Of a stretch of DNA of 64,000 nucleotides, positions 14,688 through 64,000 are shown one piece after another. Under the pieces are notes generated by a model. That model was not told the origin of the DNA. It ran no database searches and saw only the letters and a list, made by a program, of their open reading frames with translations. Each line of letters starts with the position of its first letter. Position 1 is the first letter of the stretch. This DNA is from Zoogloea sp. (GTDB taxonomy: Bacteria > Pseudomonadota > Gammaproteobacteria > Burkholderiales > Rhodocyclaceae): assembly GCF_030157465.1 (NCBI RefSeq), contig NZ_JAOAUU010000036.1, positions 2,427-66,426 on the forward strand, written 5' to 3'. Made by a program: the position numbers and the translations under genes.

Positions 14688-14730
14688 AAAAAAGGCCGAG
14701 AATCCTGATTTTGCCAGGTTTCTCGGCCTT
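14688..14730 (-). terminator. Terminator downstream of tmRNA
   Basis: Stem AAGGCCGAGAA / TTCTCGGCCTT followed by a U-run on the minus strand. Confidence 0.7.
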
Positions 14731-14755
14731 CTCCGGAACATCCCGGACTCGATTC

Positions 14756-15121: not shown

Positions 15122-15167
15122 TTGGTGATGCATTACTTTGTCCAGCCAGTAGCTGGAAAGTTCCCAA

Positions 15168-16524: not shown

Positions 16525-16591
16525 GGATGCGGGGCGTCAGCGGGACGAAGAGTTATTCAGGGGTTGATTGTATTGCGCTGTGCAGAAAAAC

Positions 16592-16618
16592 AAAAAGCCC
16601 TGCAGGGCAGGGCTTTTT
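16592..16618. terminator. Intrinsic terminator after ompA copy 1
   Basis: AAAAAGCCCTGC-agg-GCAGGGCTTTTT. Confidence 0.8.
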
Positions 16619-16650
16619 GAGGACTGACGCGAAGTCAGAAGGTCGGCAGA

Positions 16651-17376: not shown

Positions 17377-17465
17377 CGTTTTCCTCGTCGCAAGGCAAAG
17401 GGGTAGAACCGGAAGATTCATCCATGTCGCCGGAGAACACTATGAACTCAGGCAGCATATCCAAT

Positions 17466-18785: not shown

Positions 18786-18806
18786 GGTGTTTCTCGTCGG
18801 AGGCAG

Positions 18807-18831
18807 AAAAAACCCCGCTTGCGGCGGGGTT
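18807..18831 (-). terminator. Intrinsic terminator after ompA copy 2
   Basis: AACCCCGC-cgcaa-GCGGGGTT followed by TTTT on the minus strand. Confidence 0.7.
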
Positions 18832-18863
18832 CTGGAGGCGTGTGCGGGTGTATGGCCAGCGTA

Positions 18864-19586: not shown

Positions 19587-19799
19587 GAAGATCTTCCTCT
19601 ATGAAATGGCGCGTTTCCGGCGCCCGTCTCGTAATCGGTCGTGCGGCGCGATTAAATCACACGACGACCGCTGATCACAACGCATGCTGGCAGTGCAGCG
19701 TGAGTTTCCGGGGTGATGCAAGCCGAAATCGGGTATCGGCGGCGTGCTAAACTCGCTCCTTTTCGTCTTTTCGACGAATAGTCGATTCCTCGCGGTGCC

Positions 19800-22394: not shown

Positions 22395-22422
22395 ACGGAT
22401 TGACGCAGGAAGGATTTAGACA

Positions 22423-23505
22423 ATGCGCATTTTCAATTTCTCGGCCGGTCCGGCCGTGTTGCCCACCGCAGTGCTGGAACAGGCCCGCGATGAACTGCTC
22501 GACTGGCACGGTTGCGGCATGAGCATCATGGAGATGAGCCACCGGGGCAAGGATTTCACCGGGGTCATCGAGGAGGCGGAAGCCGATCTGCGTGATCTGA
22601 TGGGCATCCCGTCGAATTACAAGGTGCTCTTCCTGCAGGGCGGGGCGACGCAGCAGTTCGCGCAGATCCCGATGAACCTGCTGGCCGGTCGCTCGGCCGA
22701 TTATGTCGTCACGGGTTCGTGGTCGAAAAAGGCCTACAAGGAAGCGCAGCGCATCGGCGGCGTTCGCCTGGCCGGCACGACGGAGTCCGGCAAGTTCACC
22801 TGCGTGCCCGCCGCCGGCGAACTGCAATTCGACCCGCAGGCTGCCTACGCGCACATCTGCACCAACGAAACCATCCACGGTGTCGAGATGTTCGACCTGC
22901 CGGACGTGCCGGCAGGCGTGCCGCTGGTCGCCGACATGAGTTCCCACGTCCTGTCGCGCCCGATGGATGTTTCGCGCTATGGCCTGATCTACGCCGGTGC
23001 CCAGAAGAACATCGGTCCGGCAGGGCTCGTCATCGTGATCGTGCGTGAAGACCTGCTGGGCAAGGCCTTGCCGAGTACGCCCTCGGTGATGGATTTCAGC
23101 GTCATGGCCGAGCACGGCTCGATGCTCAATACCCCGCCCACCTTCGGAATCTATCTGGCCGGGCTGGTCTTCAAGCACCTCAAGGCCCAAGGTGGCCTGG
23201 CGGCGGTCGAAGCGGCCAATATCGCCAAGGCCACGCTGCTCTACGACGCCATCGAGAGCAGTGGCGGCTTCTACCGCAATCCGGTGGAGCAGGGCTGTCG
23301 CTCGCGCATGAACGTGCCCTTCACGCTGGAAAACCCGGCGCTGGATGCAGACTTCCTGGCCGAGGCTGCAGCGCGTCGGCTGGCCGGCCTCAAGGGTCAC
23401 AAGTCGGTGGGCGGCATGCGTGCGTCGATCTACAACGCCATGTCGCTGGAAGGTGTGGCTGCGCTGGTCGAGCTGATGCAGGATTTCGCTGCGCGCAAGG
23501 CGTGA
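22423..23505 (+). CDS. serC: Phosphoserine aminotransferase
   Basis: FNFSAGPA, NETIHGVE, YAGAQKNIGPAG, GHKSVGGMRASIYNA. Confidence 0.97.
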   Translation: MRIFNFSAGPAVLPTAVLEQARDELLDWHGCGMSIMEMSHRGKDFTGVIEEAEADLRDLMGIPSNYKVLFLQGGATQQFAQIPMNLLAGRSADYVVTGSWSKKAYKEAQRIGGVRLAGTTESGKFTCVPAAGELQFDPQAAYAHICTNETIHGVEMFDLPDVPAGVPLVADMSSHVLSRPMDVSRYGLIYAGAQKNIGPAGLVIVIVREDLLGKALPSTPSVMDFSVMAEHGSMLNTPPTFGIYLAGLVFKHLKAQGGLAAVEAANIAKATLLYDAIESSGGFYRNPVEQGCRSRMNVPFTLENPALDADFLAEAAARRLAGLKGHKSVGGMRASIYNAMSLEGVAALVELMQDFAARKA

Positions 23506-49777: not shown

Positions 49778-50455
49778 ATGACTGCCCCCCTCCTGCCTGC
49801 TGTCGAAATCGCTTCCGGCGCCAACCCGACCCATGCCGTCATCTGGATGCACGGCCTCGGGGCCGATGGCCATGATTTCGAGCCCGTCGTCGATGAGCTG
49901 GACCTCGACCGCCTGCCACCGACGCGCTTTGTCTTTCCCCACGCGCCGGAGCGTCCGGTGACGATCAATGGCGGCTATGTGATGCGCGCCTGGTACGACA
50001 TCCTGACGATGGATTTTTCGGGGCGACGGGAGGATGCGGCCGGCGTCATCGAGTCGGCGGCGCAGATCGAGGCGCTGATCGCCCGCGAGAACGCCCGCGG
50101 GATTCCCGACAGCCGCATCGTGCTGGCGGGCTTCTCCCAGGGCGGGGCGATTGCGCTGCACACCGGCCTGCGTCACCGGGCGCGGCTGGCCGGCATCCTG
50201 GCCCTGTCAACCTATCTGCCGCTGGCCGACACGCTGGCTGCGGAGGCCAGCGACGCCAACCGCAGCGTTCCGGTTTTCATGGCCCACGGCGAGGCCGATC
50301 CGGTGATTCCCCATGCTTTCAGCAGGCAGTCGGCCGACTTCCTGCTTGCTGCGGGCTATCCGCTGGCCTGGCGCAGCTACCGGATGGAGCATTCCCTGTG
50401 CATGGAAGAGCTGCGCGACATCGAGCTCTGGCTGGTCGGCGTGCTGACGGATTAA
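49778..50455 (+). CDS. Phospholipase/carboxylesterase (alpha/beta hydrolase)
   Basis: WMHGLGADG, MRAWYDI, GFSQGG, AHGEADPVI, MEHSL. Confidence 0.92.
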   Translation: MTAPLLPAVEIASGANPTHAVIWMHGLGADGHDFEPVVDELDLDRLPPTRFVFPHAPERPVTINGGYVMRAWYDILTMDFSGRREDAAGVIESAAQIEALIARENARGIPDSRIVLAGFSQGGAIALHTGLRHRARLAGILALSTYLPLADTLAAEASDANRSVPVFMAHGEADPVIPHAFSRQSADFLLAAGYPLAWRSYRMEHSLCMEELRDIELWLVGVLTD

Positions 50456-50901
50456 CTGGCGCGGCGCTTGAGCAGGTTGTTGCCGATGAAGCTCAGCACC
50501 GTTTCGCCGCGCTGGTTGACGGCCTTGTAGAGCAGGCGGGCGATGCCCCGGTCGGGCTTGGATGACGAGGGGCGCACTTCGAGCACTTCCACCACGCTGT
50601 GCAGCGTGTCGCCGGGGCGCACCGGGGCGAACCAGCGCAGTTCGTCCAGGCCCGGCGAGCCGATGCTCGACCCGGCGAAAATGCCGCTCTGGATGAACAG
50701 GCGGAAGCACACCGCGATCGACTGGAAGCCGCTGGCGATGAGCCCGCCGTAGGGCGATTCGGCCGCGGCGTTGGCGTCGAGGTGGAAGGGCTGGGGGTCG
50801 TAGCGGAAGGCGAAATCGATGATTTCAGCCTCGGTGAAGGTCAGGCCGCCGCTGGTGAAGCGGTCGCCGGGCGTCAGGTCGTCAAGGTAGCGGGTGTCCA
50901 T
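50452..50901 (-). CDS. MaoC family dehydratase
   Basis: FAFRYDPQPFHLD, GLIASG, VRPGDTL. Confidence 0.9.
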   Translation of the reverse strand: MDTRYLDDLTPGDRFTSGGLTFTEAEIIDFAFRYDPQPFHLDANAAAESPYGGLIASGFQSIAVCFRLFIQSGIFAGSSIGSPGLDELRWFAPVRPGDTLHSVVEVLEVRPSSSKPDRGIARLLYKAVNQRGETVLSFIGNNLLKRRAS

Positions 50902-50974: not shown

Positions 50975-50991
50975 CGTCAGGTTTTTTTACA
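50975..50991. promoter_or_regulatory. Candidate bEBP enhancer site (PrsR/PEP-CTERM-like)
   Basis: CGTCAG-N5-TTTACA, 58 nt upstream of the -24 GG; motif recalled from PEP-CTERM regulon work, unverified. Confidence 0.45.
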
Positions 50992-51041
50992 GTTTGCGTG
51001 GCGTAATTTACTCGAGCTTTGTTTTTAATAACATTTTTTCA

Positions 51042-51058
51042 CAGGTATGGAAGTTGCT
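51042..51058 (+). promoter_or_regulatory. Candidate sigma54 (-24/-12) promoter of the giant gene
   Basis: CAGGTATGGAAGTTGCT: GG at 51044-45, exactly 10 nt, GC at 51056-57 within TTGCT; AT-rich tract upstream. Confidence 0.55.
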
Positions 51059-51122
51059 GAAGCCTCCCTGAATAAGGCTTGCGGGCCGTCGCCTGCGGCC
51101 ACAAAACGGTAAGGGGACAAAA

Positions 51123-54100
51123 ATGGCTGCGGTTTACGGTGAAGAGCGCGTTAATTACTACACGACTGACTACCAGTACAGCCCGCAGGCTGCCGGGCTC
51201 GTCGGAGGTGGTTATGTCCTGACCTGGATCTCCAGAGGACAGGATGGCGCTGTCGACGGAATTTACGCCCAGCGTTACAACGCCTCCGGGAGCGCGGTCG
51301 GTGCCGAGTTCCAGGTCAATACCCAAACCGCCGGAAGCCAGGTCGACCCGGCCATCACCGGTCTTGCCGACGGCGGCTTCGTGATCGCCTGGAGCGACCC
51401 CAATGGCGACGGCAGCGAATCCGGCGTGTATGCCCAGCGCTATGACGCGGCCGGCATCGCCCAGGGCGGGCAGTTCCGCCTCAATACCTACACCGCAAGC
51501 AACCAGGACGTGCCTGATCTGGCCGCCTTTTCGACCGGCGGCTTCATCGCAACCTGGGCTTCCTACGGCCAGGACGGCAGCACCTATGGAATCTATGCCC
51601 AGCGCTACGACGCGGCCGGAACCGCGGTGGGCGCCGAGTTCAAGGTCAACAGCACAACAAGCAACGAGCAGACCGAGCCCCATGTGGCAACTTTCGGCGA
51701 TGGCAGTTTTGTCGTCGTGTGGCGCTCCTACCTCCAGGACGGCGACAGCTACGGCATTTACGCACAGCGCTTCAGTGCCGCAGGCCTCGCGACCGGCAGC
51801 GAGTTCCGGGTCAACACCACAACGGCCAGCGCGCAGTACGAAGAGCAGGTGGCCGCGCTCGAAGGTGGCGGCTTTGTCGTCGTGTGGAGATCCGAAGATC
51901 AGGATGGCTCCAACGCCGGCGTCTATGCCCAGCGTTATCAAGCCGACGGCAGTCCGGCCGGCGGGGAGTTCCGGGTCAACGTTTCGACGCTGGGCGGCCA
52001 GTACCAGCCCGACATCAGCGCGCTGGCCAACGGCGGCTTTGCGGTCACCTGGTACAACGACAACTCCGACGTGAGCGGAACGGGATCCTACGCCGACGTG
52101 TACGTGCGCGAATTCGCTGCCGACGGTACGCCGCTCACCGGCCAGGTCAAGGTGAATACTCCCAATGGCTCGACCAGCCAGTACGAGCCGACGATTGCCC
52201 ACATCGGAAGCGACAACTACGTTATTGCATGGCGCTCGGATGCCCAGGACGGTTCCAATTCGGGCATCTATCAGCAGCTCATGGGCACCGCCACCGAGCT
52301 GGCCCGCTCCGAAGCGCCCACCCTCGGCGATTTTGGCGGCTCCGTCAGCTTTGGCGAGAACCTCGTCAATGCCAGCCCGCAGTTGCTCGACCCGGTCGTC
52401 AGCTTCACCGATCTGGATTCTCCAAGCATGGCGGGTGGCCTCGTCACGGTGTTCTACGTGAGCGGCGCCAGTGCCGGCGACCAGTTGGCGATCAGCTCCG
52501 AAGGCATGGCGGCGGGGCAGATCAGCGTGTCGGGCAGCAGCGTGAGCTTTGGCGGCACGGTGTTCGGCAGCCTGGTCGGCGGCAGCAATGGCAGCAATCT
52601 CAGCGTCAGTCTCAATGCCGCGGCAACGCCCGATGCGGTTGAAGCCTTGATCCAGCGCATCACGTACGGCAGCTCCGACAACAGCCCGGCGCCAACGCGT
52701 CAGATCGGTGTGCGCGTCGAAGATGGCGGCGGCGCATCGGCAATGGGTGGGCTGATGACGATCAACCTCACCAAGGAACTCGACGGCACGCCTGCGGTGC
52801 ACGGTGAAGAACAGGTGAACACCTACACGCCGGGCCAGCAGCAATGGCCGTCGGTGGCCACGCTTGGCGACGGCAGCTACGTGGTGGCGTGGCAATCCGA
52901 CAACCAGGACGGCAGCGGCTGGGGCGTTTACGCGCAGCGCTTTGCCAACAATGGCGAAGCCCTGGGCCCCGAGCAACGGGTCAACACCCTCACCGGCAGC
53001 GACCAGAGCTGGCCGCAGATAGCCGGCCTGTCGAACGGCGGCTACGTCATCGCGTGGCAGGACAACGCCAACGACGGCAGCGGCTGGGGCGTGTTCGGGC
53101 AGCGCTACGACGCCAACAACCTTGCCGAGGGCGATCAGTTCCGGATCAACACCACCACCAGCGGTGACCAGTACAACGACAGCCTGGCGGCCTACACAGA
53201 CGGCTTCGCGGCGGTCTGGTCCACCAGCAACGACATCTACCTGCAGCGCTACAGCAACGCCGGGGTGAAGCAAGGCGCCGAAACCCTGGTCAGCACCGTC
53301 CCCGGCGGCGGCACCGCCCAGAGCGGCGCCCAATACCTGCCCGACGTGGCGGCCTACGCCAACGGCAACCTGGTCATCGTCTGGACCGACGCGGGCGGCA
53401 ACGACGGCGACAGCTACGGCGTCTACGGGCGCACCTACAACGCCGGCACCGGCAGCTTCGGCAGCAGCTTCCTGGTGAACACCACCACCAGCAGCTACCA
53501 GGGCTACTCCAACGACGGCAACTACGCCCCCAACGTAGCCGTGCTGAGCAACGGCGACTTCGTCGTGGTGTGGCCCTCCTACAACCAGGACAGCCCGAGC
53601 ACCTGGGCCGTGACCGGCCAGCGCTTCGACGCCGCCGGCAACAAGCTGGGGGGCGAATTCCAGGTCAACGAAACCCTCGCCGGCAGCCAGTACATTCCCG
53701 ACGTCACCGCCCTGTCCAGCGGCGGCTTCGTCGTCACCTTCTACAACGACAACTACGACATCGACGGCACCGGCTCGACGGGCGACGTCTACCTGCGTGA
53801 ATACGACGCCGGCGGCAACCCGGTCGACGGCCAGCGCAAGGTCAACGCAACCACCGTCAGCACCCAGTGGGAATCCGCCGTGGCCGACCTGGGCAACGGC
53901 AACTACGCCGTGGTGTGGGCGGGCTACAACGCCGAGGCCGGCACGGCCAACACCTACGGCATCTTCCAGCAGCTCTACGGCGACAGCACCGAGCTGGCGC
54001 GCTCGGCGAGCCCGCAACTGGGCGACTTCACCGGCACCGTCACCTTCGCCGAAAACGCGGTCAATGCCGGGCTGCAGGTGATCGACGCCGCAGTGGGGCT

Positions 54101-57100
54101 GTCCGACCCGGACTCGGGCAACTTCAACGGCGGTCGGCTGGACCTGTACTACGTCCAGAACGGCAGCGCCGAAGACCAGCTGGGCGTGGTCAGCCAGGGC
54201 AGCGGGGCCGGTCAGATCGGCGTCTCGGGCAGCACGGTGAGCTACGGCGGCGCGGTGATCGGCACGGTGAGCGGCGGCAGCAACGGCGCCAACCTGCGCA
54301 TCGACTTCACCAGCGACGCGGCCAGCGTGGAGGCCGTCGAGGCGCTGATCCAGCACCTGGGCTACCGCAACGCCGATTCCAGCCCGAACGTCAGCCGCAC
54401 GCTGGGCCTGCGGGTGTCCGACGGCGACGGTGGCAGCAGTGCGCCCAGCATGCTGACCATCGTGGTCACCGGCGACGCGGACGGCACGCCTGCGGTGTAC
54501 GGCGAAGAGCAGGTGAACACCTACACGCCGGGCCAGCAGCAATGGCCGTCGGTGGCCACGCTTGGCGACGGCAGCTACGTGGTGGCGTGGCAATCCGACA
54601 ACCAGGACGGCAGCGGCTGGGGCGTTTACGCGCAGCGCTTTGCCAACAATGGCGAAGCCCTGGGCCCCGAGCAACGGGTCAACACCCTCACCGGCAGCGA
54701 CCAGAGCTGGCCGCAGATAGCCGGCCTGTCGAACGGCGGCTACGTCATCGCGTGGCAGGACAACGCCAACGACGGCAGCGGCTGGGGCGTGTTCGGGCAG
54801 CGCTACGACGCCAACAACCTTGCCGAGGGCGATCAGTTCCGGATCAACACCACCACCAGCGGTGACCAGTACAACGACAGCCTGGCGGCCTACACAGACG
54901 GCTTCGCGGCGGTCTGGTCCACCAGCAACGACATCTACCTGCAGCGCTACAGCAACGCCGGGGTGAAGCAAGGCGCCGAAACCCTGGTCAGCACCGTCCC
55001 CGGCGGCGGCACCGCCCAGAGCGGCGCCCAATACCTGCCCGACGTGGCGGCCTACGCCAACGGCAACCTGGTCATCGTCTGGACCGACGCGGGCGGCAAC
55101 GACGGCGACAGCTACGGCGTCTACGGGCGCACCTACAACGCCGGCACCGGCAGCTTCGGCAGCAGCTTCCTGGTGAACACCACCACCAGCAGCTACCAGG
55201 GCTACTCCAACGACGGCAACTACGCCCCCAACGTAGCCGTGCTGAGCAACGGCGACTTCGTCGTGGTGTGGCCCTCCTACAACCAGGACAGCCCGAGCAC
55301 CTGGGCCGTGACCGGCCAGCGCTTCGACGCCGCCGGCAACAAGCTGGGGGGCGAATTCCAGGTCAACGAAACCCTCGCCGGCAGCCAGTACATTCCCGAC
55401 GTCACCGCCCTGTCCAGCGGCGGCTTCGTCGTCACCTTCTACAACGACAACTACGACATCGACGGCACCGGCTCGACGGGCGACGTCTACCTGCGTGAAT
55501 ACGACGCCGGCGGCAACCCGGTCGACGGCCAGCGCAAGGTCAACGCAACCACCGTCAGCACCCAGTGGGAATCCGCCGTGGCCGACCTGGGCAACGGCAA
55601 CTACGCCGTGGTGTGGGCGGGCTACAACGCCGAGGCCGGCACGGCCAACACCTACGGCATCTTCCAGCAGCTCTACGGCGACAGCACCGAGCTGGCGCGC
55701 TCGGCGAGCCCGCAACTGGGCGACTTCACCGGCACCGTCACCTTCGCCGAAAACGCGGTCAATGCCGGGCTGCAGGTGATCGACGCCGCAGTGGGGCTGT
55801 CCGACCCGGACTCGGGCAACTTCAACGGCGGTCGGCTGGACCTGTACTACGTCCAGAACGGCAGCGCCGAAGACCAGCTGGGCGTGGTCAGCCAGGGCAG
55901 CGGGGCCGGTCAGATCGGCGTCTCGGGCAGCACGGTGAGCTACGGCGGCGCGGTGATCGGCACGGTGAGCGGCGGCAGCAACGGCGCCAACCTGCGCATC
56001 GACTTCACCAGCGACGCGGCCAGCGTGGAGGCCGTCGAGGCGCTGATCCAGCACCTGGGCTACCGCAACGCCGATTCCAGCCCGAACGTCAGCCGCACGC
56101 TGGGCCTGCGGGTGTCCGACGGCGACGGTGGCAGCAGTGCGCCCAGCATGCTGACCATCGTGGTCACCGGCGACGCGGACGGCACGCCTGCGGTGTACGG
56201 CGAAGAGCAGGTGAACACCTACACCTACGATTACCAGTACGCACCCGCGGTGGCCGGGCTTGCCGGCGGTGGTTACGTCACCACCTGGATTTCGCGCAGC
56301 CAGGATGGTGCGGCAGGCGCCGACGGGATCTACGCGCAGCGCTTCCTTGAAAATGGCGAGGCGGTGGGCCCCGAGTTCCGGGTGAACAGCACCACCGCGG
56401 GCAACCAGCGTGACGTGAAAGTCGCCGGTCTGTCCGACGGCAGTTTCGTCCTTGCCTGGACCGACCAGAACGGCAACCCGGACGGCAGCGGCTACGGTGT
56501 TTACGGCCAGCGTTTTGATGCCGCCGGCAATGCGCTGGGCGGGCAGTTCCTGATCAACGCAACGTCGACCAGCAGCAACCAGGAGGCGCCGGCGATTGCC
56601 GCATTCGAGAGCGGTGGTTTCGTCGTTACCTGGGATTCGAGCGCATCGCTGGCCAACGGCGGCGATGGCAGCGGCGACGGCGTGTATGCGCAGCGCTTCA
56701 ACAACGACGGCACGACCAACGGCGGGATGTTCCGCGTCAATACCACCACGGCGAACTCGCAATACGAAAGCGACGTGGCGGCCCACGCCGACGGCAGCTT
56801 CGTTGTGAGCTGGCGCTCCGACGCGCAGGACGGCAGTGGCGCAGGGGTGTACTTCCAGCGCTACGACGCCGCCGGTGTCGCGCTGGGCGCAGAAACCCGG
56901 GCGAACACCATCACGATCAGCAGCCAGTACGAGGCGAAGATCGCCACCCTCGCCGGTGGCGGCTTCGTCATCGTCTGGCGCGACGACGGCGGCCAGGACG
57001 GCTCCGCCAACGCGGTTTTCGGGCAGCGCTTCGATGCCGCCGGCAACCCCCTGGGCGATCAGTTCCGGGTCAACGAGACGACGTCCGGCAGCCAGTACCA

Positions 57101-60100
57101 GCCTGATGTCGTCGGGCTCGACAACGGAGGTTTCGTTGTCACCTTCTACAACGACAACTACGACCTCAGCGGCAGCGGCTCCACCGCCGACGTTTACATC
57201 CGCGAATACGATCTCAACGGCGTCGCCGTCGACGGGCAGCGCAAAGTCAATACCTTTACCGGCAGCAGTCAGCAGGAGCCGGCGATTGCTCATCTGGGCA
57301 GTGACAATTTTGTCGTGACCTGGCGCTCCGAGACGCAGGACGGCAGCAACTCCGGGGTCTATCAGCAGCTGTTCGGAGCAGCGGCCGAACTCCCCCGTGC
57401 GTCAGCCAACCCGGTGCTGGACGACTTCCGCGCGCAGCGCATTCTGGTGAGCGACGCGGCCTCGTCGTTCTACGCCGGCACGCCGCAGCTGATCGACGGC
57501 GACGTGGGCGTGCAGGACGCAGATTCCGCCGACTTCGACGGCGGCAGCTTCACCGTCACCCTGCTCAACGGAGCCACGGCCACCGAAGCCCTGGGCATCC
57601 GAAACCAGGGCACTGGCACCCTCCAGATCGGCGTCGCAGGCAGCGACATCAGCTTCGCCGGCACCGTGATCGGCAGCTTCACCGGAGGCGGCGCCGGCAA
57701 CAGCCTGCTCACCGTCACCCTCAACGCCAACGCCACCCCGCTGGCAATACGCGGCCTGGCCCAGAACATCACCTACCAGAACACCGCGCCCCCCGCCGGC
57801 ACCACCGACCGCTACGTGAGCTTCCGCCTCACCGACGGCGACGGCGGCACCAGCAACGCGGCAAACGTGGAGATCCAGATTCAGCCCACGATCACGCCCA
57901 CCGCGGTGGCCGTGGACGACATCGAAACCAGCGTCACCCTCACCGAAGCCCAGGCCCAAGCCGGCGGCTTCTTGCTCGACAATGCGGCGCAGGTCAATTA
58001 CAACGGCGCCGGCAACTTCAACACCGGCACGCTGACGGTCTCCTACCTCAGCAGCACCAGCCGCGTGGACGACCAGCTCGGCATCCGCAACCAGGGCAGC
58101 GGCGCCAACGAGGTGGGCGTCTCCGGCACCGCGGTGAGCTTCCAGGGCACCCAGATCGGCACCCTCAGCGGCACGCTGAACGGCGTAAACGGCAACAACC
58201 TGCAGATCACCTGGAACGCCAGCGCCACCGACCAGGGCATCGAGCGGGTCATCGAAAACCTCACTTACGGCAACACCTCCGACGGCCCCAACGCCAGCCG
58301 CAGCATCCGCTTTGCGCTGACCGACAGCAGCGGCACCGCGAGCACCGTCCGCGACATGCAGATCAACGTGACGCCTCAGATTGACGGTGCCAGCCCGATC
58401 TTCGGTGAGCAGCAGGTCAACACCTACGAGCCGAACGAGCAGCACGTTCCGGTAACGACCGGCCTGCAGGGCGTCAATGACGGCAGCTACGTGGTGGTGT
58501 GGCGCTCGAACGGGCAGGACGGCAGCAGCTACGGCATTTACGGGCAGCGCTACGACAACCGGGGCGGTGCGGTGGGGGCCGAGTTCCAGGTCAATACCCA
58601 GACGCTGGGCGCGCAATACGAAGCCGAAGTGGCCAGCCTGGCCAACGGTGGTTTCGTGGTGGTGTGGCGTGACGACAGTGGCCGCGATGGCTCCGGAACC
58701 GGCATTTACGCCCAGATCTACGGGGCCGACGGCGCCCGGGTTGGCGGCGAGCGGCTGATCAACACCACCACCACCGGCAGCCAGTACGAGCCGGCGGTGG
58801 TGGGCCTGAGCGACGGCAGCTTCGTCGTCGCCTATCGCAGCGACTACACGGGCGGCGCCTACACCACCGACGTGCTGGCGCGGCGCTTCGATGCCGGCGG
58901 CACCGAACTGACACCGGAATTCACCCTCAACACCACCACCTCGGGCACCCAGTACAACCCGCGTCTGGCGGCGCTCGCCGGCGGGCAGTTCGTGGTGGTG
59001 TATGGCGACGCCAGCGGCAACGACGGCAGCAGCTACGGCGTCTTCAGCAAGGTCTTCAACGCCAACGGCACAGAGGCGGTGGCCGAGCAACTGGCGAACA
59101 CCACGATCAGCGGCCAGCAAAGCGGCCACGACGTGGTGGCGCTCACGGGCGGCGGCTACGTGGCCACCTGGTGGTCGGCCGACAACCACATCTACGGCCA
59201 GCGCTTCGACGCGAGCGGCGCCAAGGTGAATGGCGAGTTCCGCATCAGCACGGTCGACACGCAGCCCAACAACAACTTTGCCCGCGTCACGGCGCTGGAC
59301 AGCGGCGGCTTCGTGGTGGCCTGGGATGCCAACGGCTACGAGGTGTACATCCAGCAGTTCGACGCCAGCGGCAACAAGGTAGACGGCCCGACGCAGGTCA
59401 ACACCACGACAGCCAGCACGCAGTACTACGCGGATGTCGCCGGGCTGTCGGGCAGCAACTTCGTGGTGACCTGGGCGGGCTACAACCAGGAGGCCGGCGG
59501 CCCGAGCACTTACGGCATCTTCAGTCAGATTCTGGGCGCGCCCGGCTCGCTCACCCGCTCGGCGGCGCCGGAGCTGGTGGACGTGGCGACGAGCGTGACG
59601 TTTGCCGAAAACCTGGTCAATGCCACGCCGCAGCTGATCGACAGCGCAGTGCGTCTTTCCGACGCCGACTCCGCCAGCTTCAATGGTGGCCAGCTGGTGG
59701 TGTCCGTCGTTGTCGCCGGCCAGAATCAGGTGGATACCCCCTTCAGCCAGGATCAGCTGGGCATCCGCAACGCAGGCACCGGCACGGGCCAGATCGGCGT
59801 GTCCGGCAGCGATGTCAGCTATCAGGGCACAACGATCGGCACGATTGTCTCTGGCGGGGCCAACGGCAGCACGCTGGCGGTGAACCTCAATGCCAACGCC
59901 ACTGCCGGCGCGGTGGAAGCGCTGATCGAGCACCTCACCTACGCCAATAGCTCCACCAATCCGGCGGCAACCCGCCTGGTGAGCATCCAGGTCAGCGATG
60001 GTCTTGGCGGGGCCAGTGTTCCCCGTACCGTGCAGATCAACGTGACGCCTCAGATTGACGGTGCCAGCCCGATCTTCGGCGAGCAGCAGGTCAACACCTA

Positions 60101-63100
60101 CGAGCCGAACGAGCAGCACGTTCCGGTAACGACCGGCCTGCAGGGCGTCAATGACGGCAGCTACGTGGTGGTGTGGCGCTCGAACGGGCAGGACGGCAGC
60201 AGCTACGGCATTTACGGGCAGCGCTACGACAACCGGGGCGGTGCGGTGGGGGCCGAGTTCCAGGTCAATACCCAGACGCTGGGCGCGCAATACGAAGCCG
60301 AAGTGGCCAGCCTGGCCAACGGTGGTTTCGTGGTGGTGTGGCGTGACGACAGTGGCCGCGATGGCTCCGGAACCGGCATTTACGCCCAGATCTACGGGGC
60401 CGACGGCGCCCGGGTTGGCGGCGAGCGGCTGATCAACACCACCACCACCGGCAGCCAGTACGAGCCGGCGGTGGTGGGCCTGAGCGACGGCAGCTTCGTC
60501 GTCGCCTATCGCAGCGACTACACGGGCGGCGCCTACACCACCGACGTGCTGGCGCGGCGCTTCGATGCCGGCGGCACCGAACTGACACCGGAATTCACCC
60601 TCAACACCACCACCTCGGGCACCCAGTACAACCCGCGTCTGGCGGCGCTCGCCGGCGGGCAGTTCGTGGTGGTGTATGGCGACGCCAGCGGCAACGACGG
60701 CAGCAGCTACGGCGTCTTCAGCAAGGTCTTCAACGCCAACGGCACAGAGGCGGTGGCCGAGCAACTGGCGAACACCACGATCAGCGGCCAGCAAAGCGGC
60801 CACGACGTGGTGGCGCTCACGGGCGGCGGCTACGTGGCCACCTGGTGGTCGGCCGACAACCACATCTACGGCCAGCGCTTCGACGCGAGCGGCGCCAAGG
60901 TGAATGGCGAGTTCCGCATCAGCACGGTCGACACGCAGCCCAACAACAACTTTGCCCGCGTCACGGCGCTGGACAGCGGCGGCTTCGTGGTGGCCTGGGA
61001 TGCCAACGGCTACGAGGTGTACATCCAGCAGTTCGACGCCAGCGGCAACAAGGTAGACGGCCCGACGCAGGTCAACACCACGACAGCCAGCACGCAGTAC
61101 TACGCGGATGTCGCCGGGCTGTCGGGCAGCAACTTCGTGGTGACCTGGGCGGGCTACAACCAGGAGGCCGGCGGCCCGAGCACTTACGGCATCTTCAGTC
61201 AGATTCTGGGCGCGCCCGGCTCGCTCACCCGCTCGGCGGCGCCGGAGCTGGTGGACGTGGCGACGAGCGTGACGTTTGCCGAAAACCTGGTCAATGCCAC
61301 GCCGCAGCTGATCGACAGCGCAGTGCGTCTTTCCGACGCCGACTCCGCCAGCTTCAATGGTGGCCAGCTGGTGGTCAGCGTGATCTCCGGCTACGGCAAC
61401 ATCGAGCAGGCCCAGTTGCCGAACAGCCCGGAGACGCAGGATCAGTTCGGCATCCGCAATCAGGGGAGCGGCGCGGGGCAGGTGGATGTGTCCGGCAGCA
61501 ACGTGCGCTATGGCGGTATCGTCATCGGCACGATCAGCTCCGATGGCCTCAATGGCCATGACTTCGTCGTCACCTTCAACGCCAGCGCCACTGCCGGTGC
61601 GGTGGAGGCGGTGATCGAGAACCTCACCTACCGGAATGTGGTGTCCAATCCGGTTGCCAGCCGGATGGTGAGCATCCAGGTCAGCGACGGCGCCGGCGGT
61701 GCCAGCGCGCCGCAGGTGGTGCAGATCAACATCACGCCCGAATACGACGGCGCCCAGCCGCTGTACCAGGAGGATTCCGTCAACACCTACACGCCGTCGA
61801 ACCAGAGCCAGCCGGCCATGGCCCGACTGGAGGATGGCGGCTACGTCACGGTGTGGACTTCCGAGATCCAGGATGGCTGGGGCTATGGCATTTATGGCCA
61901 GCGCTACGACGCCGCAGGCGTGGCGGTCGGCAACCAGTTCCAGGTCAATGACTACACGCCCTACAACCAGACCGAGCCCGCGATTTCCAGCCTGGCCGGT
62001 GGCGGTTTCGTGGTGGTGTGGCGGGATGACGGCGGGCATGACGGCAGCAGCTACGGCGTATTCGGCCAGCGCTACGATGCCGCTGGCCTGCAGGTGGGCA
62101 ATGCGCTGCTGATCAACTCCCATACGGGCAGCGCCCAGTATCAACCGTCGATCGCCAGCGTCGCCGGTGGTGGCTTCATCGTGGCCTGGTATTCCGATGC
62201 CACCCAGGACGGCCGCCCCTACGACGTTTACTTCCAGCGTTTCGACAACAGCGGCACACCCCTTGGCGCGGAAACCCGGGCCAATGCCAGTGCGGGCTTT
62301 GTGAACAGCGCCCAGTACGAGCCCGCGGTGACGGTGCTCTCCGATGCCAGCTTCGTCGTCACCTGGCGCTCCGAGAGCCAGGATGGCAGCAGCTCCGGCG
62401 TCTATGGCCAGCGCTTCGCCGCCGATGGCACGGCGCTGGGCGGCGAGTTCCGGGTCAACACCTATACCGACAGCAATCAGCTTGATCCCAGCATTGCCGC
62501 GCTGAGCGGTGGCGGCTTCGTCGTCAGCTGGACTTCCTATTACCAGGATGGCGGCGGCACCTACGGGGTGTTTGCCCAGCGCTACGCCAACGATGGCACG
62601 CCGCTGGGTGGCGAGTTCCGCGTCAATACCACCACGGCCAGCAACGAACAGCAGTCGTCGGTGACGGCCCTGGCCAACGGTGGCTTTGCGATCGTCTGGA
62701 GCAACGGCAGCGAAATCTATGCCCAGCAATACAGCGCGGGTGGCGTTGCGGTGGATGGCGAAACCCGCATCGACGTGCTTGACGACAACTATGCGATCGA
62801 GCCTGCCGTGCTGGGCCTCGGCAATGGCAATTTCGTCGTGAGCTGGACGGACAGGGGGGATGGCGGCGGCAACAGCTATGGCATCTACCAGCGCGTGCTG
62901 GGCAACCCTGCCGATTTTTCGCGCCAGGCCAATCCGGTGCTGGTGGATGTGGCACAGAGCGTCACCTTTGGCGAGAACGAACTCAACCTGATGCCGCGCC
63001 TGATCGATCCGGGCGTCGGCCTCTACGACGCCGACTCGGCAAACTTCGCCGGCGGCAGGCTCGAGGTTGATTACATCAGCGGCTACGGTGGCCAGGACCA

Positions 63101-64000
63101 ACTGGGCATGCAGGGCCTGGAGAACCAGGATCAGCTCGGCATCCTCAGCGAAGGCGATGGGCTGGCGCAGGTTCGCGTATCGGGTCTCAACGTGTTCTAC
63201 AGCGGCGTGCAGGTGGGCACCATCACCGCCAACGGCGCCAACCACGGCAAGCTGGTGATCGAATTCAACGCCAGCGCCAACGTCGATGCGGTCGAGTCGG
63301 TCATCGAGAACCTCACCTACCAGAACACCTCCAGCAACCCGTTTGCCAGCCGCACCGTATCGCTGCGCCTGACCGACGGTGACGGTGGCGCGAGCGACGC
63401 AAAGTTCATCACCCTCAACGTGACGTCCGCGGTGGATGGCGCCGTGCCCCTGGGGCTGGAAAAGAGCGTCAACACCACGGTGGCCGGCGACCAGAGCGAG
63501 CCCTCGGTGGCGCATCTGGCGGGTGGCGGCTATGTGGTCGTCTGGACGGACCAGGGCGGCGCCGACGGCAGCAACCATGGCGTCTATGCCCAGCGCTACG
63601 ACGCGGACAACAACCCGGTCGGCGTCGAATTCAGGGTCAATACCACCACGACCAACTACCAGTACGAGCCGCAGGTGGTGGGACTGGCCGATGGCGGCTA
63701 TGTCGTGGTGTGGCGCTCCGACGCCCAGGACGGCAGCAGCACCGGCGTCTTTGCGCAGCGCTACGATAACCTGGGGGCGCCCGCGGGTAGCGAGTTCCGT
63801 GTCAATGAAAGCACTCCGGGCGGGCAATACCAGCCCGACGTGGCAGCACTTGCCAGCGGCGGCTTTGTCGTTACCTGGTTCAACGACAACTACGATGTGG
63901 TTCCGGGCACCGGCAGCTATGCCGACGTGTATGTACGCCACTATGCGGCCGACGGCAGCGCCAGCACCGGCCAGATCAAGGCCAATACGCCAACGGCCAG
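51123..64000 (+). CDS. Giant repetitive surface/secreted protein (>4290 aa, 3'-truncated): 7-repeat beta-propeller-like modules alternating with Ig/cadherin-like domains
   Basis: AAGGGG RBS, ATG at 51123 (MAAVYGEERVNYY); same frame still open at 63963 (STGQIKANTPTA); ~55-aa repeat EFRVNTTT.G.Q..P.VA.L..GGFVVVW.S..QDGS..GVYAQRYDA.G; absent from the ORF track because no stop lies in the window. Confidence 0.9.
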   Translation, partial: MAAVYGEERVNYYTTDYQYSPQAAGLVGGGYVLTWISRGQDGAVDGIYAQRYNASGSAVGAEFQVNTQTAGSQVDPAITGLADGGFVIAWSDPNGDGSESGVYAQRYDAAGIAQGGQFRLNTYTASNQDVPDLAAFSTGGFIATWASYGQDGSTYGIYAQRYDAAGTAVGAEFKVNSTTSNEQTEPHVATFGDGSFVVVWRSYLQDGDSYGIYAQRFSAAGLATGSEFRVNTTTASAQYEEQVAALEGGGFVVVWRSEDQDGSNAGVYAQRYQADGSPAGGEFRVNVSTLGGQYQPDISALANGGFAVTWYNDNSDVSGTGSYADVYVREFAADGTPLTGQVKVNTPNGSTSQYEPTIAHIGSDNYVIAWRSDAQDGSNSGIYQQLMGTATELARSEAPTLGDFGGSVSFGENLVNASPQLLDPVVSFTDLDSPSMAGGLVTVFYVSGASAGDQLAISSEGMAAGQISVSGSSVSFGGTVFGSLVGGSNGSNLSVSLNAAATPDAVEALIQRITYGSSDNSPAPTRQIGVRVEDGGGASAMGGLMTINLTKELDGTPAVHGEEQVNTYTPGQQQWPSVATLGDGSYVVAWQSDNQDGSGWGVYAQRFANNGEALGPEQRVNTLTGSDQSWPQIAGLSNGGYVIAWQDNANDGSGWGVFGQRYDANNLAEGDQFRINTTTSGDQYNDSLAAYTDGFAAVWSTSNDIYLQRYSNAGVKQGAETLVSTVPGGGTAQSGAQYLPDVAAYANGNLVIVWTDAGGNDGDSYGVYGRTYNAGTGSFGSSFLVNTTTSSYQGYSNDGNYAPNVAVLSNGDFVVVWPSYNQDSPSTWAVTGQRFDAAGNKLGGEFQVNETLAGSQYIPDVTALSSGGFVVTFYNDNYDIDGTGSTGDVYLREYDAGGNPVDGQRKVNATTVSTQWESAVADLGNGNYAVVWAGYNAEAGTANTYGIFQQLYGDSTELARSASPQLGDFTGTVTFAENAVNAGLQVIDAAVGLSDPDSGNFNGGRLDLYYVQNGSAEDQLGVVSQGSGAGQIGVSGSTVSYGGAVIGTVSGGSNGANLRIDFTSDAASVEAVEALIQHLGYRNADSSPNVSRTLGLRVSDGDGGSSAPSMLTIVVTGDADGTPAVYGEEQVNTYTPGQQQWPSVATLGDGSYVVAWQSDNQDGSGWGVYAQRFANNGEALGPEQRVNTLTGSDQSWPQIAGLSNGGYVIAWQDNANDGSGWGVFGQRYDANNLAEGDQFRINTTTSGDQYNDSLAAYTDGFAAVWSTSNDIYLQRYSNAGVKQGAETLVSTVPGGGTAQSGAQYLPDVAAYANGNLVIVWTDAGGNDGDSYGVYGRTYNAGTGSFGSSFLVNTTTSSYQGYSNDGNYAPNVAVLSNGDFVVVWPSYNQDSPSTWAVTGQRFDAAGNKLGGEFQVNETLAGSQYIPDVTALSSGGFVVTFYNDNYDIDGTGSTGDVYLREYDAGGNPVDGQRKVNATTVSTQWESAVADLGNGNYAVVWAGYNAEAGTANTYGIFQQLYGDSTELARSASPQLGDFTGTVTFAENAVNAGLQVIDAAVGLSDPDSGNFNGGRLDLYYVQNGSAEDQLGVVSQGSGAGQIGVSGSTVSYGGAVIGTVSGGSNGANLRIDFTSDAASVEAVEALIQHLGYRNADSSPNVSRTLGLRVSDGDGGSSAPSMLTIVVTGDADGTPAVYGEEQVNTYTYDYQYAPAVAGLAGGGYVTTWISRSQDGAAGADGIYAQRFLENGEAVGPEFRVNSTTAGNQRDVKVAGLSDGSFVLAWTDQNGNPDGSGYGVYGQRFDAAGNALGGQFLINATSTSSNQEAPAIAAFESGGFVVTWDSSASLANGGDGSGDGVYAQRFNNDGTTNGGMFRVNTTTANSQYESDVAAHADGSFVVSWRSDAQDGSGAGVYFQRYDAAGVALGAETRANTITISSQYEAKIATLAGGGFVIVWRDDGGQDGSANAVFGQRFDAAGNPLGDQFRVNETTSGSQYQPDVVGLDNGGFVVTFYNDNYDLSGSGSTADVYIREYDLNGVAVDGQRKVNTFTGSSQQEPAIAHLGSDNFVVTWRSETQDGSNSGVYQQLFGAAAELPRASANPVLDDFRAQRILVSDAASSFYAGTPQLIDGDVGVQDADSADFDGGSFTVTLLNGATATEALGIRNQGTGTLQIGVAGSDISFAGTVIGSFTGGGAGNSLLTVTLNANATPLAIRGLAQNITYQNTAPPAGTTDRYVSFRLTDGDGGTSNAANVEIQIQPTITPTAVAVDDIETSVTLTEAQAQAGGFLLDNAAQVNYNGAGNFNTGTLTVSYLSSTSRVDDQLGIRNQGSGANEVGVSGTAVSFQGTQIGTLSGTLNGVNGNNLQITWNASATDQGIERVIENLTYGNTSDGPNASRSIRFALTDSSGTASTVRDMQINVTPQIDGASPIFGEQQVNTYEPNEQHVPVTTGLQGVNDGSYVVVWRSNGQDGSSYGIYGQRYDNRGGAVGAEFQVNTQTLGAQYEAEVASLANGGFVVVWRDDSGRDGSGTGIYAQIYGADGARVGGERLINTTTTGSQYEPAVVGLSDGSFVVAYRSDYTGGAYTTDVLARRFDAGGTELTPEFTLNTTTSGTQYNPRLAALAGGQFVVVYGDASGNDGSSYGVFSKVFNANGTEAVAEQLANTTISGQQSGHDVVALTGGGYVATWWSADNHIYGQRFDASGAKVNGEFRISTVDTQPNNNFARVTALDSGGFVVAWDANGYEVYIQQFDASGNKVDGPTQVNTTTASTQYYADVAGLSGSNFVVTWAGYNQEAGGPSTYGIFSQILGAPGSLTRSAAPELVDVATSVTFAENLVNATPQLIDSAVRLSDADSASFNGGQLVVSVVVAGQNQVDTPFSQDQLGIRNAGTGTGQIGVSGSDVSYQGTTIGTIVSGGANGSTLAVNLNANATAGAVEALIEHLTYANSSTNPAATRLVSIQVSDGLGGASVPRTVQINVTPQIDGASPIFGEQQVNTYEPNEQHVPVTTGLQGVNDGSYVVVWRSNGQDGSSYGIYGQRYDNRGGAVGAEFQVNTQTLGAQYEAEVASLANGGFVVVWRDDSGRDGSGTGIYAQIYGADGARVGGERLINTTTTGSQYEPAVVGLSDGSFVVAYRSDYTGGAYTTDVLARRFDAGGTELTPEFTLNTTTSGTQYNPRLAALAGGQFVVVYGDASGNDGSSYGVFSKVFNANGTEAVAEQLANTTISGQQSGHDVVALTGGGYVATWWSADNHIYGQRFDASGAKVNGEFRISTVDTQPNNNFARVTALDSGGFVVAWDANGYEVYIQQFDASGNKVDGPTQVNTTTASTQYYADVAGLSGSNFVVTWAGYNQEAGGPSTYGIFSQILGAPGSLTRSAAPELVDVATSVTFAENLVNATPQLIDSAVRLSDADSASFNGGQLVVSVISGYGNIEQAQLPNSPETQDQFGIRNQGSGAGQVDVSGSNVRYGGIVIGTISSDGLNGHDFVVTFNASATAGAVEAVIENLTYRNVVSNPVASRMVSIQVSDGAGGASAPQVVQINITPEYDGAQPLYQEDSVNTYTPSNQSQPAMARLEDGGYVTVWTSEIQDGWGYGIYGQRYDAAGVAVGNQFQVNDYTPYNQTEPAISSLAGGGFVVVWRDDGGHDGSSYGVFGQRYDAAGLQVGNALLINSHTGSAQYQPSIASVAGGGFIVAWYSDATQDGRPYDVYFQRFDNSGTPLGAETRANASAGFVNSAQYEPAVTVLSDASFVVTWRSESQDGSSSGVYGQRFAADGTALGGEFRVNTYTDSNQLDPSIAALSGGGFVVSWTSYYQDGGGTYGVFAQRYANDGTPLGGEFRVNTTTASNEQQSSVTALANGGFAIVWSNGSEIYAQQYSAGGVAVDGETRIDVLDDNYAIEPAVLGLGNGNFVVSWTDRGDGGGNSYGIYQRVLGNPADFSRQANPVLVDVAQSVTFGENELNLMPRLIDPGVGLYDADSANFAGGRLEVDYISGYGGQDQLGMQGLENQDQLGILSEGDGLAQVRVSGLNVFYSGVQVGTITANGANHGKLVIEFNASANVDAVESVIENLTYQNTSSNPFASRTVSLRLTDGDGGASDAKFITLNVTSAVDGAVPLGLEKSVNTTVAGDQSEPSVAHLAGGGYVVVWTDQGGADGSNHGVYAQRYDADNNPVGVEFRVNTTTTNYQYEPQVVGLADGGYVVVWRSDAQDGSSTGVFAQRYDNLGAPAGSEFRVNESTPGGQYQPDVAALASGGFVVTWFNDNYDVVPGTGSYADVYVRHYAADGSASTGQIKANTPTA
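52812..56224 (+). repeat. Tandem duplication, 1698-bp period (566 aa), two copies plus 17 nt
   Basis: CAGGTGAACACCTACAC at 52812, 54510 and 56208; the two copies looked identical by eye. Confidence 0.92.
58357..61375 (+). repeat. Direct repeat, 1345 bp at 1674-bp period (58357-59701 and 60031-61375)
   Basis: TGCAGATCAACGTGACGCCTCAG at 58357 and 60031; one synonymous difference seen (GGT/GGC); identity ends inside the Ig-like domain. Confidence 0.9.

Follow-up and report, generated by a model that had tools for sequence, protein, structure and literature searches.

A giant propeller-array protein of Zoogloea as a candidate type I-secreted matrix scaffold of the PEP-CTERM regulon

Wastewater treatment with activated sludge or granules depends on the flocs and granules that Zoogloea, Thauera, Accumulibacter and their relatives form. 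Little is known of the proteins that make up the matrix. In Aquincola, flocculation requires PEP-CTERM genes that depend on RpoN (PMC9850573), and what PEP-CTERM proteins do is unexplained. What, then, is encoded by a very long open reading frame (ORF), here called the giant gene, that runs off the end of a 64,000-nucleotide (nt) stretch of Zoogloea sp. DNA (NCBI RefSeq assembly GCF_030157465.1, contig NZ_JAOAUU010000036.1, positions 2,427 to 66,426; 'the window' below)? A preliminary description, made from the letters of the window, had proposed a string of seven-bladed beta-propellers on Ig-like stalks that is exported by type I secretion and could be a floc or biofilm matrix scaffold. Having compared the gene with its relatives, modelled its domains and read its genomic context, we consider it probable that the giant is a type I-secreted, multivalent matrix or adhesion scaffold that lacks RTX (repeats-in-toxin) nonapeptides and belongs to the exosortase/floc regulon. 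What is new here is a fixed design of four plus four propellers, a link to a type I secretion system (T1SS) without RTX repeats, a PEP-CTERM neighbour and a promoter of the PrsR/sigma-54 type.

Results

The N-terminal 4,292 codons of the giant gene fill positions 51123 to 64000 of the window on the plus strand. The frame opens with an ATG, runs to 63998 with zero stops and is open at its 3' end. On the genome contig (C32, 68,942 nt, of which the window is 2427-66426) it is still open where the contig ends, which gives at least 5,131 amino acids (aa) without a stop, and complete homologues of 6,149-6,472 aa put the full length at an estimated 6,000-6,500 aa, of which the window covers two thirds or more. 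The single open frame of more than 4,290 codons that had been proposed is therefore borne out on re-translation and is intact to the contig end. Given the base composition, 4,292 codons without a stop would arise by chance with a probability of about 1e-44, and the G+C (GC) fractions at codon positions 1, 2 and 3 are 0.62, 0.50 and 0.87 (GC3 0.873). Two minus-strand ORFs overlap the giant gene, at 51039-57293 (2,084 codons) and 57402-63941 (2,179 codons). Both have a GC1 of 0.87 and a GC3 of 0.62, and because this high GC1 mirrors the pattern of the coding frame we regard them as shadows and not as genes. The giant gene was itself missing from the ORF list of the window, probably since ORFs that run off the window end are unlisted by default.

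The protein starts inside its first propeller. Its N-terminus, MAAVYGEERVN, is the first strand of propeller 1, in agreement with the earlier statement that it begins on a module boundary with neither a signal peptide nor a retention module, and no signal peptide core was found in the first 50 residues (highest 12-residue Kyte-Doolittle mean 1.3). The ATG is preceded, at a distance of 7-12 nt, by AAGGGG, which resembles a Shine-Dalgarno sequence. The protein is strongly acidic, with a net charge of about -351, and contains 0 Cys.

A blade hidden Markov model (HMM) trained on five repeats finds exactly 56 blades, that is, eight modules of seven, with the consensus.VNTtT.g.Qy.P.VAaL..GgFVVvW.s..qDGS.yGVY.QRydA.G...ggef. 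The modules start at 51123, 52788, 54486, 56184, 58389, 60063, 61752 and 63441, all within 5 nt of the positions first given for seven complete modules and a beginning eighth. The eight spacer domains described earlier are also found, at ~170 aa each, and the four motifs named for them (D.DS.NF.GG, DQLGI, AVEALI..LTY.N and V.DGDGG) are all in the alignment consensus; there are eight spacers in seven gaps because the gap after module 4 carries two.

All parts lie on the plus strand, as placed by the blade HMM and by domain alignment and mapping. Propeller M1 (51123-52286, seven blades) is followed by spacer S1 (52287-52787, a predicted beta-sandwich), M2 (52788-53981) by S2 (53982-54485), and M3 (54486-55679), which differs from M2 by one residue, by S3 (55680-56183), which is identical to S2. 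After M4 (56184-57377) comes the double spacer S4a and S4b (57378-58388), the hinge between the M1-M4 and M5-M8 halves, whose position is conserved in homologues. The second half consists of M5 (58389-59537), S5 (59538-60062), M6 (60063-61211; identical to M5 as protein), S6 (61212-61751), M7 (61752-62897), S7 (62898-63440) and M8, of which only the start is in the window (63441-64000). At the DNA level, M2+S2 and M3+S3 form an exact direct repeat (52812-54526 = 54510-56224; 1,715 nt, offset 1,698), and M5 and M6 have an exact run of 1,295 nt in common (58407-59701 = 60081-61375, offset 1,674). M2/M3 and M5/M6 are near-identical in homologues too, a sign of gene conversion.

No Pfam or NCBIfam family scores above its cut-off within the window, whether the protein is scanned whole or domain by domain, and single-domain scans of propellers and spacers return CopC, Glyco_hydro_43 and MlaD at sub-threshold scores only. 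PDB sequence searches likewise gave no significant match, either for the single protein or for propeller and spacer profiles. For these profiles, window copies and database homologue fragments were combined into alignments of 47 propellers (A4) and 46 spacers (A3). AlphaFold2 models module 1 as all-beta with four strands per 55-aa repeat (predicted local distance difference test (pLDDT) 94.6, predicted template modelling score (pTM) 0.93). In the model the N-terminal strand (residues 3-9, VYGEERV) is placed as the fourth strand of the last blade, and this predicted velcro closure would account for every module, and the protein itself, opening with ...YGEEQVNTYT. The best Foldseek match of the propeller in the PDB is the seven-bladed propeller of CylK, an alkylating enzyme of cyanobacteria (template modelling (TM) score 0.77, root-mean-square deviation 3.9 A, ~415 columns, 14% identity). 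Further matches are two carbohydrate-active propellers of seven blades, the PL42 rhamnose-glucuronate lyase (TM 0.67) and GH145 BT3686 (0.63), and six-bladed sialidases (~0.5). With seven repeats per module, a confident model and top matches that are seven-bladed, the prediction of a closed seven-bladed propeller, as made at the outset, is supported.

S7, the spacer modelled, is compact and mainly beta, with three short helices (pLDDT 93.1, pTM 0.88). Its best PDB folds (cohesin/FnIII, cadherins, Siglec-like adhesin domains and the p53 core) all have TM ≤0.45, and the spacer is best described as a predicted beta-sandwich of the broad Ig/cadherin kind without a close solved relative. Of the Ig-like stalk domains proposed before, the beta-sandwich is modelled confidently, and 'Ig-like' is approximate, as the fold matches are weak.

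Among the polar residues of the blade, conservation is highest for N, T and Q in the blade-joining loop and for D-G-S in the B-C loop; in standard propeller topology both loops are on the top face. Over all positions of the 47-sequence module alignment, the invariant or near-invariant columns are the residues of the blade consensus (N, Q, W, G and D-G-S in each blade), and because all module-conserved residues belong to this consensus no active site stands out. CylK carries Ca2+ sites in its blade-joining loops (PMC8916777); by analogy, Ca2+ binding in the propeller loops of the giant is a lead, not a result.

Beyond the window M8 is completed and followed on the contig by a weak Cadherin_5-like domain and then by PKD_4 repeats (137 bits, E = 2.2e-40) until the contig breaks. 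PKD_4, Cadherin_5 (195.9 bits, E = 8.6e-59) and Big_9 (175.4 bits) pass Pfam gathering thresholds in this region beyond the window. The complete homologues that we read, from Accumulibacter (6,472 aa), Cognatazoarcus (4,652 aa) and Alteromonas (6,572 aa) together with two metagenomic proteins, continue with more PKD and Cadherin_5/Big_9 domains and end in a conserved C-terminal domain of ~220 aa (alignment A5). In the Zoogloea genome, a 174-contig draft, the start of contig C27 encodes the corresponding end: PKD, three Cadherin_5/Big_9 domains, the C-terminal domain and a stop, a giant C-terminal fragment of 1,195 aa ending ...GVPLPHDEL. No match to the C-terminal domain was found in Pfam, NCBIfam or the PDB, and the extreme C-termini differ among homologues. 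There is no PEP-CTERM tail at the C27 end, and with neither this tail nor a signal peptide the giant cannot be an exosortase substrate. The RTX nonapeptides (GGxGxDxUx) that the preliminary description had suggested looking for further along did not appear: we count 0 in the 5,131 aa of C32, 0 in the C27 fragment and 0 in complete betaproteobacterial homologues, and a few in Rhodobacteraceae and Ectothiorhodospiraceae relatives.

At least two giant paralogues with N-termini are present in the genome, on C32 and on C13 (67% identity in module 1). A 10.7-kb contig, C126, is an open frame from end to end, 99-100% identical to parts of C13 with one segment missing (propeller (P) and spacer (S) order P-S-S-P, versus P-S-P-S-S-S-P in C13), and must be a further paralogue, the third, or else reflect strain variation in the assembly. 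All three contigs break inside the PKD array.

Export can be read from the genes that follow the C-terminus. Downstream of the giant gene of Cognatazoarcus halotolerans, three genes in the same orientation encode a 245-aa PEP-CTERM protein, a 569-aa ATP-binding cassette (ABC) protein that matches TIGR01842 (type_I_sec_PrtD; 661.8 bits, cut-off 510) and a 447-aa adaptor that matches TIGR01843 (type_I_hlyD; 410.3 bits, cut-off 208.65). With the C-terminal domain as query, 76 loci were fetched from species-representative genomes. A PEP-CTERM-tailed ORF starts within 900 nt after the stop in 44 of the 71 loci with at least 1.2 kb downstream, and tblastn detects further such neighbours; ABC and membrane fusion protein (MFP) genes lie downstream on the same strand in 26 of the 60 loci with at least 5 kb downstream. 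Seventeen loci show propellers, spacers and PKD domains in the upstream 10 kb; of these, 15/17 have the PEP-CTERM gene and 13/17 have the T1SS pair.

In the Zoogloea genome itself, the giant tail on C27 is followed by a PEP-CTERM gene of 181 aa (PF07589 28.2 bits, cut-off 20.7; TIGR02595 24.5, cut-off 16). Within the gene after the giant C-terminus, C27:4301-4355 equals the end of contig C75 (reverse complement) over an exact 55 nt, a typical assembler k-mer length. Past this overlap C75 encodes a PrtD-type ABC (659.7 bits) and an HlyD adaptor (360.8 bits), and C27 runs on into other genes; because the two contigs diverge there, the assembly graph branches after the PEP-CTERM gene. Read across the overlap, at least one giant copy in this genome, be it that of C32 or another paralogue, appears to stand in the order giant, PEP-CTERM, ABC, MFP. 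The ABCs score 325-337 bits against LssB (cut-off 693). The gene context, the missing signal peptide and an acidic composition free of Cys together give good support to type I secretion as the predicted route, and the export beyond the window that had been proposed finds its PrtD/HlyD pair downstream in relatives and, through the 55-nt overlap, probably in the genome itself. Without RTX repeats and a retention module, the giant is not a LapA-type adhesin.

The small PEP-CTERM partner was compared with the giant in several ways. Homology to the giant C-terminal domain was rejected (hhalign probability 0.8%), a pair of the cohesin-dockerin type was discarded as neither protein matches a cohesin or dockerin family, and the partner profile has no significant PDB sequence match. 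Across 21 related loci, divergence of the C-terminal domain follows that of the PEP-CTERM protein beyond the ABC transporter (partial Mantel r = 0.65, p = 0.0005; controls 0.38 and 0.53), which is weak support, since the loci are related and the proteins evolve at different rates. The adjacency also holds for proteins that have the C-terminal domain and no propellers in the 10 kb upstream. At loci L035-L039 in a Zoogloeaceae metagenome-assembled genome (JACKMA010000002, about 797-857 kb), a stretch of ~60 kb carries four separate genes that end in this C-terminal domain, of which two or more are followed by a PEP-CTERM, ABC and MFP set of their own, and only PKD repeats are found in the 10 kb upstream; given the absence of propellers there, the cassette of C-terminal domain, PEP-CTERM protein and T1SS may carry different cargo.

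Upstream of the giant gene, a candidate PrsR-type enhancer, CGTCAGGTTTTTTTACA (50975-50991, plus strand), ends in TTTACA and fits motif 1 of Haft et al. 2006, and a sequence match to a sigma-54 -24/-12 promoter, AGGTATGGAAGTTGCT, follows at 51043-51058 on the plus strand (GG at 51044-45, GC at 51056-57). From the TTTACA at 50986-50991, the spacer to AGGTATGGAAGTTGCT is 51 nt, and 64 nt separate the latter from the giant ATG. In the layout reported for proteobacterial PEP-CTERM genes, a 17-nt motif has TTTACA as its last letters, a spacer of 32-92 nt (mean 63) leads to a -24/-12 site of the form GG-N10-GC, and the start follows after ~71 nt (PMC1569441). The distances before the giant gene are consistent with this layout. 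The profile of the TTTACA element matches PrsK, PrsR and PrsT (Haft et al. 2006, PMC1569441). A GTCnGnTTTTTTTACA-like element with good -24/-12 boxes also lies upstream of the C13 paralogue, and the same layout precedes the giant genes of Cognatazoarcus (TGGCATTGAATTTGCA), Accumulibacter (GGGCACGGATCTTGCG) and a Thauera-like sewage contig (AGGCATGTTTGATGCT).

A genome-wide scan with the strict composite pattern TTTACA-N30-95-GG-N8-TTGC[AT] gives 11 sites with a downstream ORF, of which 5 precede PEP-CTERM ORFs, among them the PEP-CTERM gene beside the giant C-terminus, and 2 precede giant paralogues. Such sites are, for example, C71:16541, C77:23552, C77:125334, C116:5921 and C135:58925; the one on C71 lies before the gene of a secreted 146-aa protein that has no PEP tail and may also belong to the regulon. 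Among related loci, a composite promoter lies between the giant stop and the PEP-CTERM gene in 17 of 43. The genome carries both PrsR (752.6 bits, cut-off 502.6) and the exosortase XrtA (281.5 bits, cut-off 208). Judged by its cis-element, the giant gene is a predicted member of the PrsR/sigma-54 (PEP-CTERM) regulon, and since PEP-CTERM genes have the same element it would be made together with the exosortase/exopolysaccharide matrix programme.

The giant has many relatives. A word-indexed search with residues 1-1125 as query yielded 834 giant homologues (2,360-7,500 aa) among 1,597 candidates scored. The best, 63-65% identical, come from Thauera, Thiobacillus and unclassified Betaproteobacteria, the next from Accumulibacter, Zoogloea, Roseateles and Aquincola, followed by Rhodobacteraceae, Alteromonas and others. 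They are labelled 'PKD domain-containing', 'Ig-like domain-containing', 'tandem-95 repeat', 'beta strand repeat-containing' or 'hypothetical'; the PF27427 annotated on some of them is a faint TP_0855_C match and was set aside as irrelevant. In a HMMER search, the propeller profile reaches 53,523 representative clusters at E ≤ 0.001 and 19,510 at E ≤ 1e-30.

Mapping of the two domain HMMs on 245 retrieved proteins shows that essentially all complete betaproteobacterial members have the order P-S-P-S-P-S-P-S-S-P-S-P-S-P-S-P, which can also be recognised in Rhodobacteraceae and Alteromonas. Conservation of the order PSPSPSPSSPSPSPSP extends over Thauera, Thiobacillus, Accumulibacter, Zoogloea, Roseateles, Rhodobacteraceae and Alteromonas, and in most mapped homologues the first propeller begins at residue 1-6. 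Intact full-length homologues with the same eight-module order lie on contigs of 1.3-3.8 Mb. The strict alternation of propeller and spacer is not rare: the architecture is conserved in hundreds of database proteins from Beta-, Alpha- and Gammaproteobacteria, and the surprise is accordingly smaller than was first assumed. What the first reading had said about a characterised homologue stands: none was found in the databases and literature searched, in which a 'giant protein' of Alteromonas was the only mention. By its sequence, the protein belongs to a large, conserved and uncharacterised proteobacterial family whose main two domains have no family models.

A maximum-likelihood tree of 71 modules from nine proteins separates M1-M4 from M5-M8, and both betaproteobacterial clades are strongly supported (100/100 and 96/82). 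M7 and M8 form orthologous clades across betaproteobacterial genera, and within-protein homogenisation is seen for M2/M3(/M4) and M5/M6. The design thus appears as two propeller tetrads joined by a double spacer, ancient and constrained, with gene conversion ongoing.

The genes upstream of the giant in the window are housekeeping genes (MaoC, DUF294 nucleotidyltransferase, M48 peptidase, RsgA and PheST), with no secretion genes among them. The nearest encodes a MaoC-like dehydratase of 149 aa on the minus strand (50452-50901), divergent from the giant gene, and the 221-nt intergenic region between the two contains the entire giant enhancer and promoter. Elsewhere in the genome, C27:4543-22936 carries a second, unrelated giant-protein system that is convergent to the C-terminus of the PKD giant, with a TolC-like gene (21098-22936), a 4,173-codon frame (8203-20721), an HlyD-family gene and an M50-peptidase/HlyD fusion in this order. 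The product of the 4,173-codon frame combines a DUF4347-like N-terminus with a segment resembling C-type lectins and a single copy of the spacer domain of the giant. At C53:4970-16520, a full-length HlyB-type ABC (TIGR01846 425 bits, below cut-off) and an MFP are encoded directly after a third giant ORF (2,452 aa); by its gene content this looks like another T1SS substrate cluster.

Discussion

We propose the following course of events for the giant. A sigma-54 promoter with a PrsR-type enhancer would start its transcription alongside that of PEP-CTERM genes and exopolysaccharide. A dedicated PrtD/HlyD pair, with an outer-membrane factor, would then export the protein C-terminus first, the C-terminal domain carrying the secretion signal. 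Outside the cell, the rigid sandwich spacers would hold the propellers apart on a PKD/cadherin stalk, and the eight propeller faces could bind a repeated ligand, either a matrix polysaccharide or a protein, in a multivalent manner. In this way the propellers may cross-link matrix polymers or neighbouring cells as a floc or biofilm scaffold. The scaffold role suggested in the preliminary description gains circumstantial support from the PrsR/sigma-54-type promoter and the PEP-CTERM neighbour.

The C-terminal domain may in addition dock on the neighbouring PEP-CTERM protein. Docking is suggested by the recurrent pairing of the domain with one small PEP-CTERM family, and the shared promoter type of the two genes counts in the same direction. 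Exosortase would sort the PEP-CTERM protein onto the envelope or exopolysaccharide, the C-terminal domain of the giant would dock there, and the propellers would be displayed or would cross-link the matrix. We regard this anchoring in trans, which would join two export routes, as a tentative extension, with the chances rather against it.

Several observations weigh against the scaffold as we describe it. The sigma-54/TTTACA element is absent upstream of the homologues in Aquincola sp. J276 (L082) and at L085, and Thauera L023 and several Accumulibacter loci have no adjacent T1SS pair. The family is patchy: when 121 genomes were sampled from this GTDB order, 5 carried the N-terminal propeller (E ≤ 1e-20), from which it follows that the giant is not an obligatory part of the PEP-CTERM system. 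The giant gene is cut by the contig end, its own C-terminal contig could be C27 plus C75 or C27 alone, and the copy number of exact ~1.7-kb units is insecure in a short-read assembly of the k=55 type.

The nearest propeller folds also count on this side, as they are enzymes and not lectins (CylK 0.77, PL42 0.67, GH145 0.63, sialidases ~0.5). Together with the weak sub-threshold Glyco_hydro_43 matches, they suggest an enzyme array in which the propellers act as polysaccharide lyases or hydrolases, or as CylK-like transferases, and remodel exopolysaccharide or degrade polymers. We consider this improbable: the 47-module alignment holds no blade-specific polar set that would suggest an active site, there is no sequence-level relation to any solved enzyme, and CylK requires a Ca-binding beta-roll domain and a catalytic Arg105/Tyr473 interface pair (PMC8916777), of which the domain is absent here. 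Eight tandem homogenised copies (M2=M3, M5=M6) suit avidity better than catalysis, and given this multivalency, the homogenised modules and the predicted matrix regulon we favour binding. Binding could also serve an adhesin of the classical RTX type (LapA, SiiE, MpIBP), with its N-terminus anchored in the outer-membrane pore of the T1SS and the distal end bound to a surface. A giant repetitive protein with PKD/cadherin-like extenders and an adjacent T1SS fits that picture, and Rhodobacteraceae relatives do end in RTX repeats and a ...DIDFV tail. With 0 RTX nonapeptides and no LapA-type retention module, points that count against our own reading too, this standard model does not apply. The N-terminus is moreover a propeller strand with no extra domain or family match, the ABC is PrtD-type and not of the LapB/LssB or HlyB type, and no LapG/LapD-type genes occur in the neighbourhoods read; we doubt strongly that the giant works in this way.

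Variation within the family suggests a protein without a specific role in aggregation, an abundant, variable coat that stays on the surface or is shed, shields the cell from phages, predators or grazers and is subject to diversifying replacement. The Alteromonas member is in an island exchanged between clonal frames, like the islands for O-antigen and flagellar glycosylation (PMC3698932), the distribution is patchy (5/121 genomes in the order), and two or three paralogues per genome undergo gene conversion between modules. The strongly conserved domain order and the position-specific module clades argue for a constrained function instead, and co-regulation and linkage with PEP-CTERM matrix genes would indicate a matrix programme. 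The two roles are compatible, and as an explanation in its own right we find the coat unlikely. An artefact, either an assembly chimera or a decaying pseudogene held open by repeats and high GC, might be suspected from the 174-contig draft, the exact 1.3-1.7-kb repeats, the contig break within the PKD array and the antisense ORFs of more than 2,000 codons. It is hardly credible in view of the GC3 of 0.873, which marks the plus frame as coding and the antisense ORFs as shadows, the intact full-length homologues on 1.3-3.8 Mb contigs, the pLDDT above 93 for both domain types and the presence of a conserved promoter.

If the giant is a matrix scaffold, its family offers a testable candidate for one of the missing matrix proteins: it is very large and multivalent, and appears to have its own export pump, a PEP-CTERM-type promoter and one PEP-CTERM partner. 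Should trans-anchoring turn out to be true, PEP-CTERM proteins would be sockets for T1SS cargo, which would give a mechanistic explanation of why they are needed in flocculation. The family also reveals two abundant domains without a Pfam, NCBIfam or PDB sequence match, the 55-aa blade and the ~170-aa beta-sandwich. As these domains have no family models, thousands of such proteins are labelled just 'PKD domain-containing' or 'hypothetical', and family models together with one solved structure would improve annotation widely. The strict conservation of the 4+4 propeller order despite ongoing gene conversion makes this an unusual fixed-design repeat protein.

Among known systems, LapA of Pseudomonas fluorescens, SiiE of Salmonella and MpIBP of Marinomonas resemble the giant in being thousands of residues long, acidic and Cys-free without a Sec signal, in their tandem beta-sandwich extenders (PKD and cadherin-like in the giant), in an adjacent ABC and HlyD-family adaptor, and in a presumed role in adhesion or biofilm. 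In contrast to them, the giant has no RTX nonapeptides and no N-terminal retention module, its ABC is PrtD-type, and ~60% of it consists of eight units of seven-bladed propeller and spacer, which are not seen in characterised adhesins. A PEP-CTERM link and a PrsR/sigma-54-type promoter take the place of the LapD/LapG control by cyclic di-GMP found in LapA-class adhesins. BapP of Pseudoalteromonas tunicata, a biofilm adhesin found by proteomics, combines a propeller with tandem cadherin-like/Big_9 domains and has a possible T1SS neighbourhood (PMC12153261). We considered it as a characterised relative and rejected it, as it has one five-bladed N-terminal propeller, a Sec signal and 12 beta-sandwich repeats without alternation, and belongs to an unrelated family.

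The C-terminal propeller of CylK/BrtB (PDB 7RON, 7ROO; PMC8916777) is like the predicted giant modules in having seven blades of four strands each. In CylK, Ca2+ loops join the blades, and the equivalent loops of the giant hold its most conserved polar residues (N, T and Q). CylK differs as a two-domain enzyme that needs an N-terminal Ca2+-binding beta-roll, packed against the top face of its propeller, and has a single propeller instead of an array; no beta-roll domain precedes any giant module, the spacers being predicted beta-sandwiches, and the 47-sequence profile shows no sequence-level similarity to CylK.

The family member mentioned in the literature is the 'giant protein' of Alteromonas (6,573 aa), reported in a genomic island with VCBS repeats and function unknown (Lopez-Perez et al. 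2013, PMC3698932). It is a true member of the family (P0059, 6,572 aa), with eight propellers, the central double spacer, a PKD array and a C-terminal domain of the type described above, and Alteromonas loci have a T1SS ABC and MFP downstream. It differs in being only ~35% identical, and no PEP-CTERM neighbour was found in the Alteromonas loci. With the PEP-CTERM/exosortase system (PMC1569441; PepA of Aquincola, PMC9850573), finally, the giant gene has the same cis-layout in common, and the giant would stand beside the PEP-CTERM proteins as a T1SS-exported member of their regulon rather than as a substrate of the exosortase.

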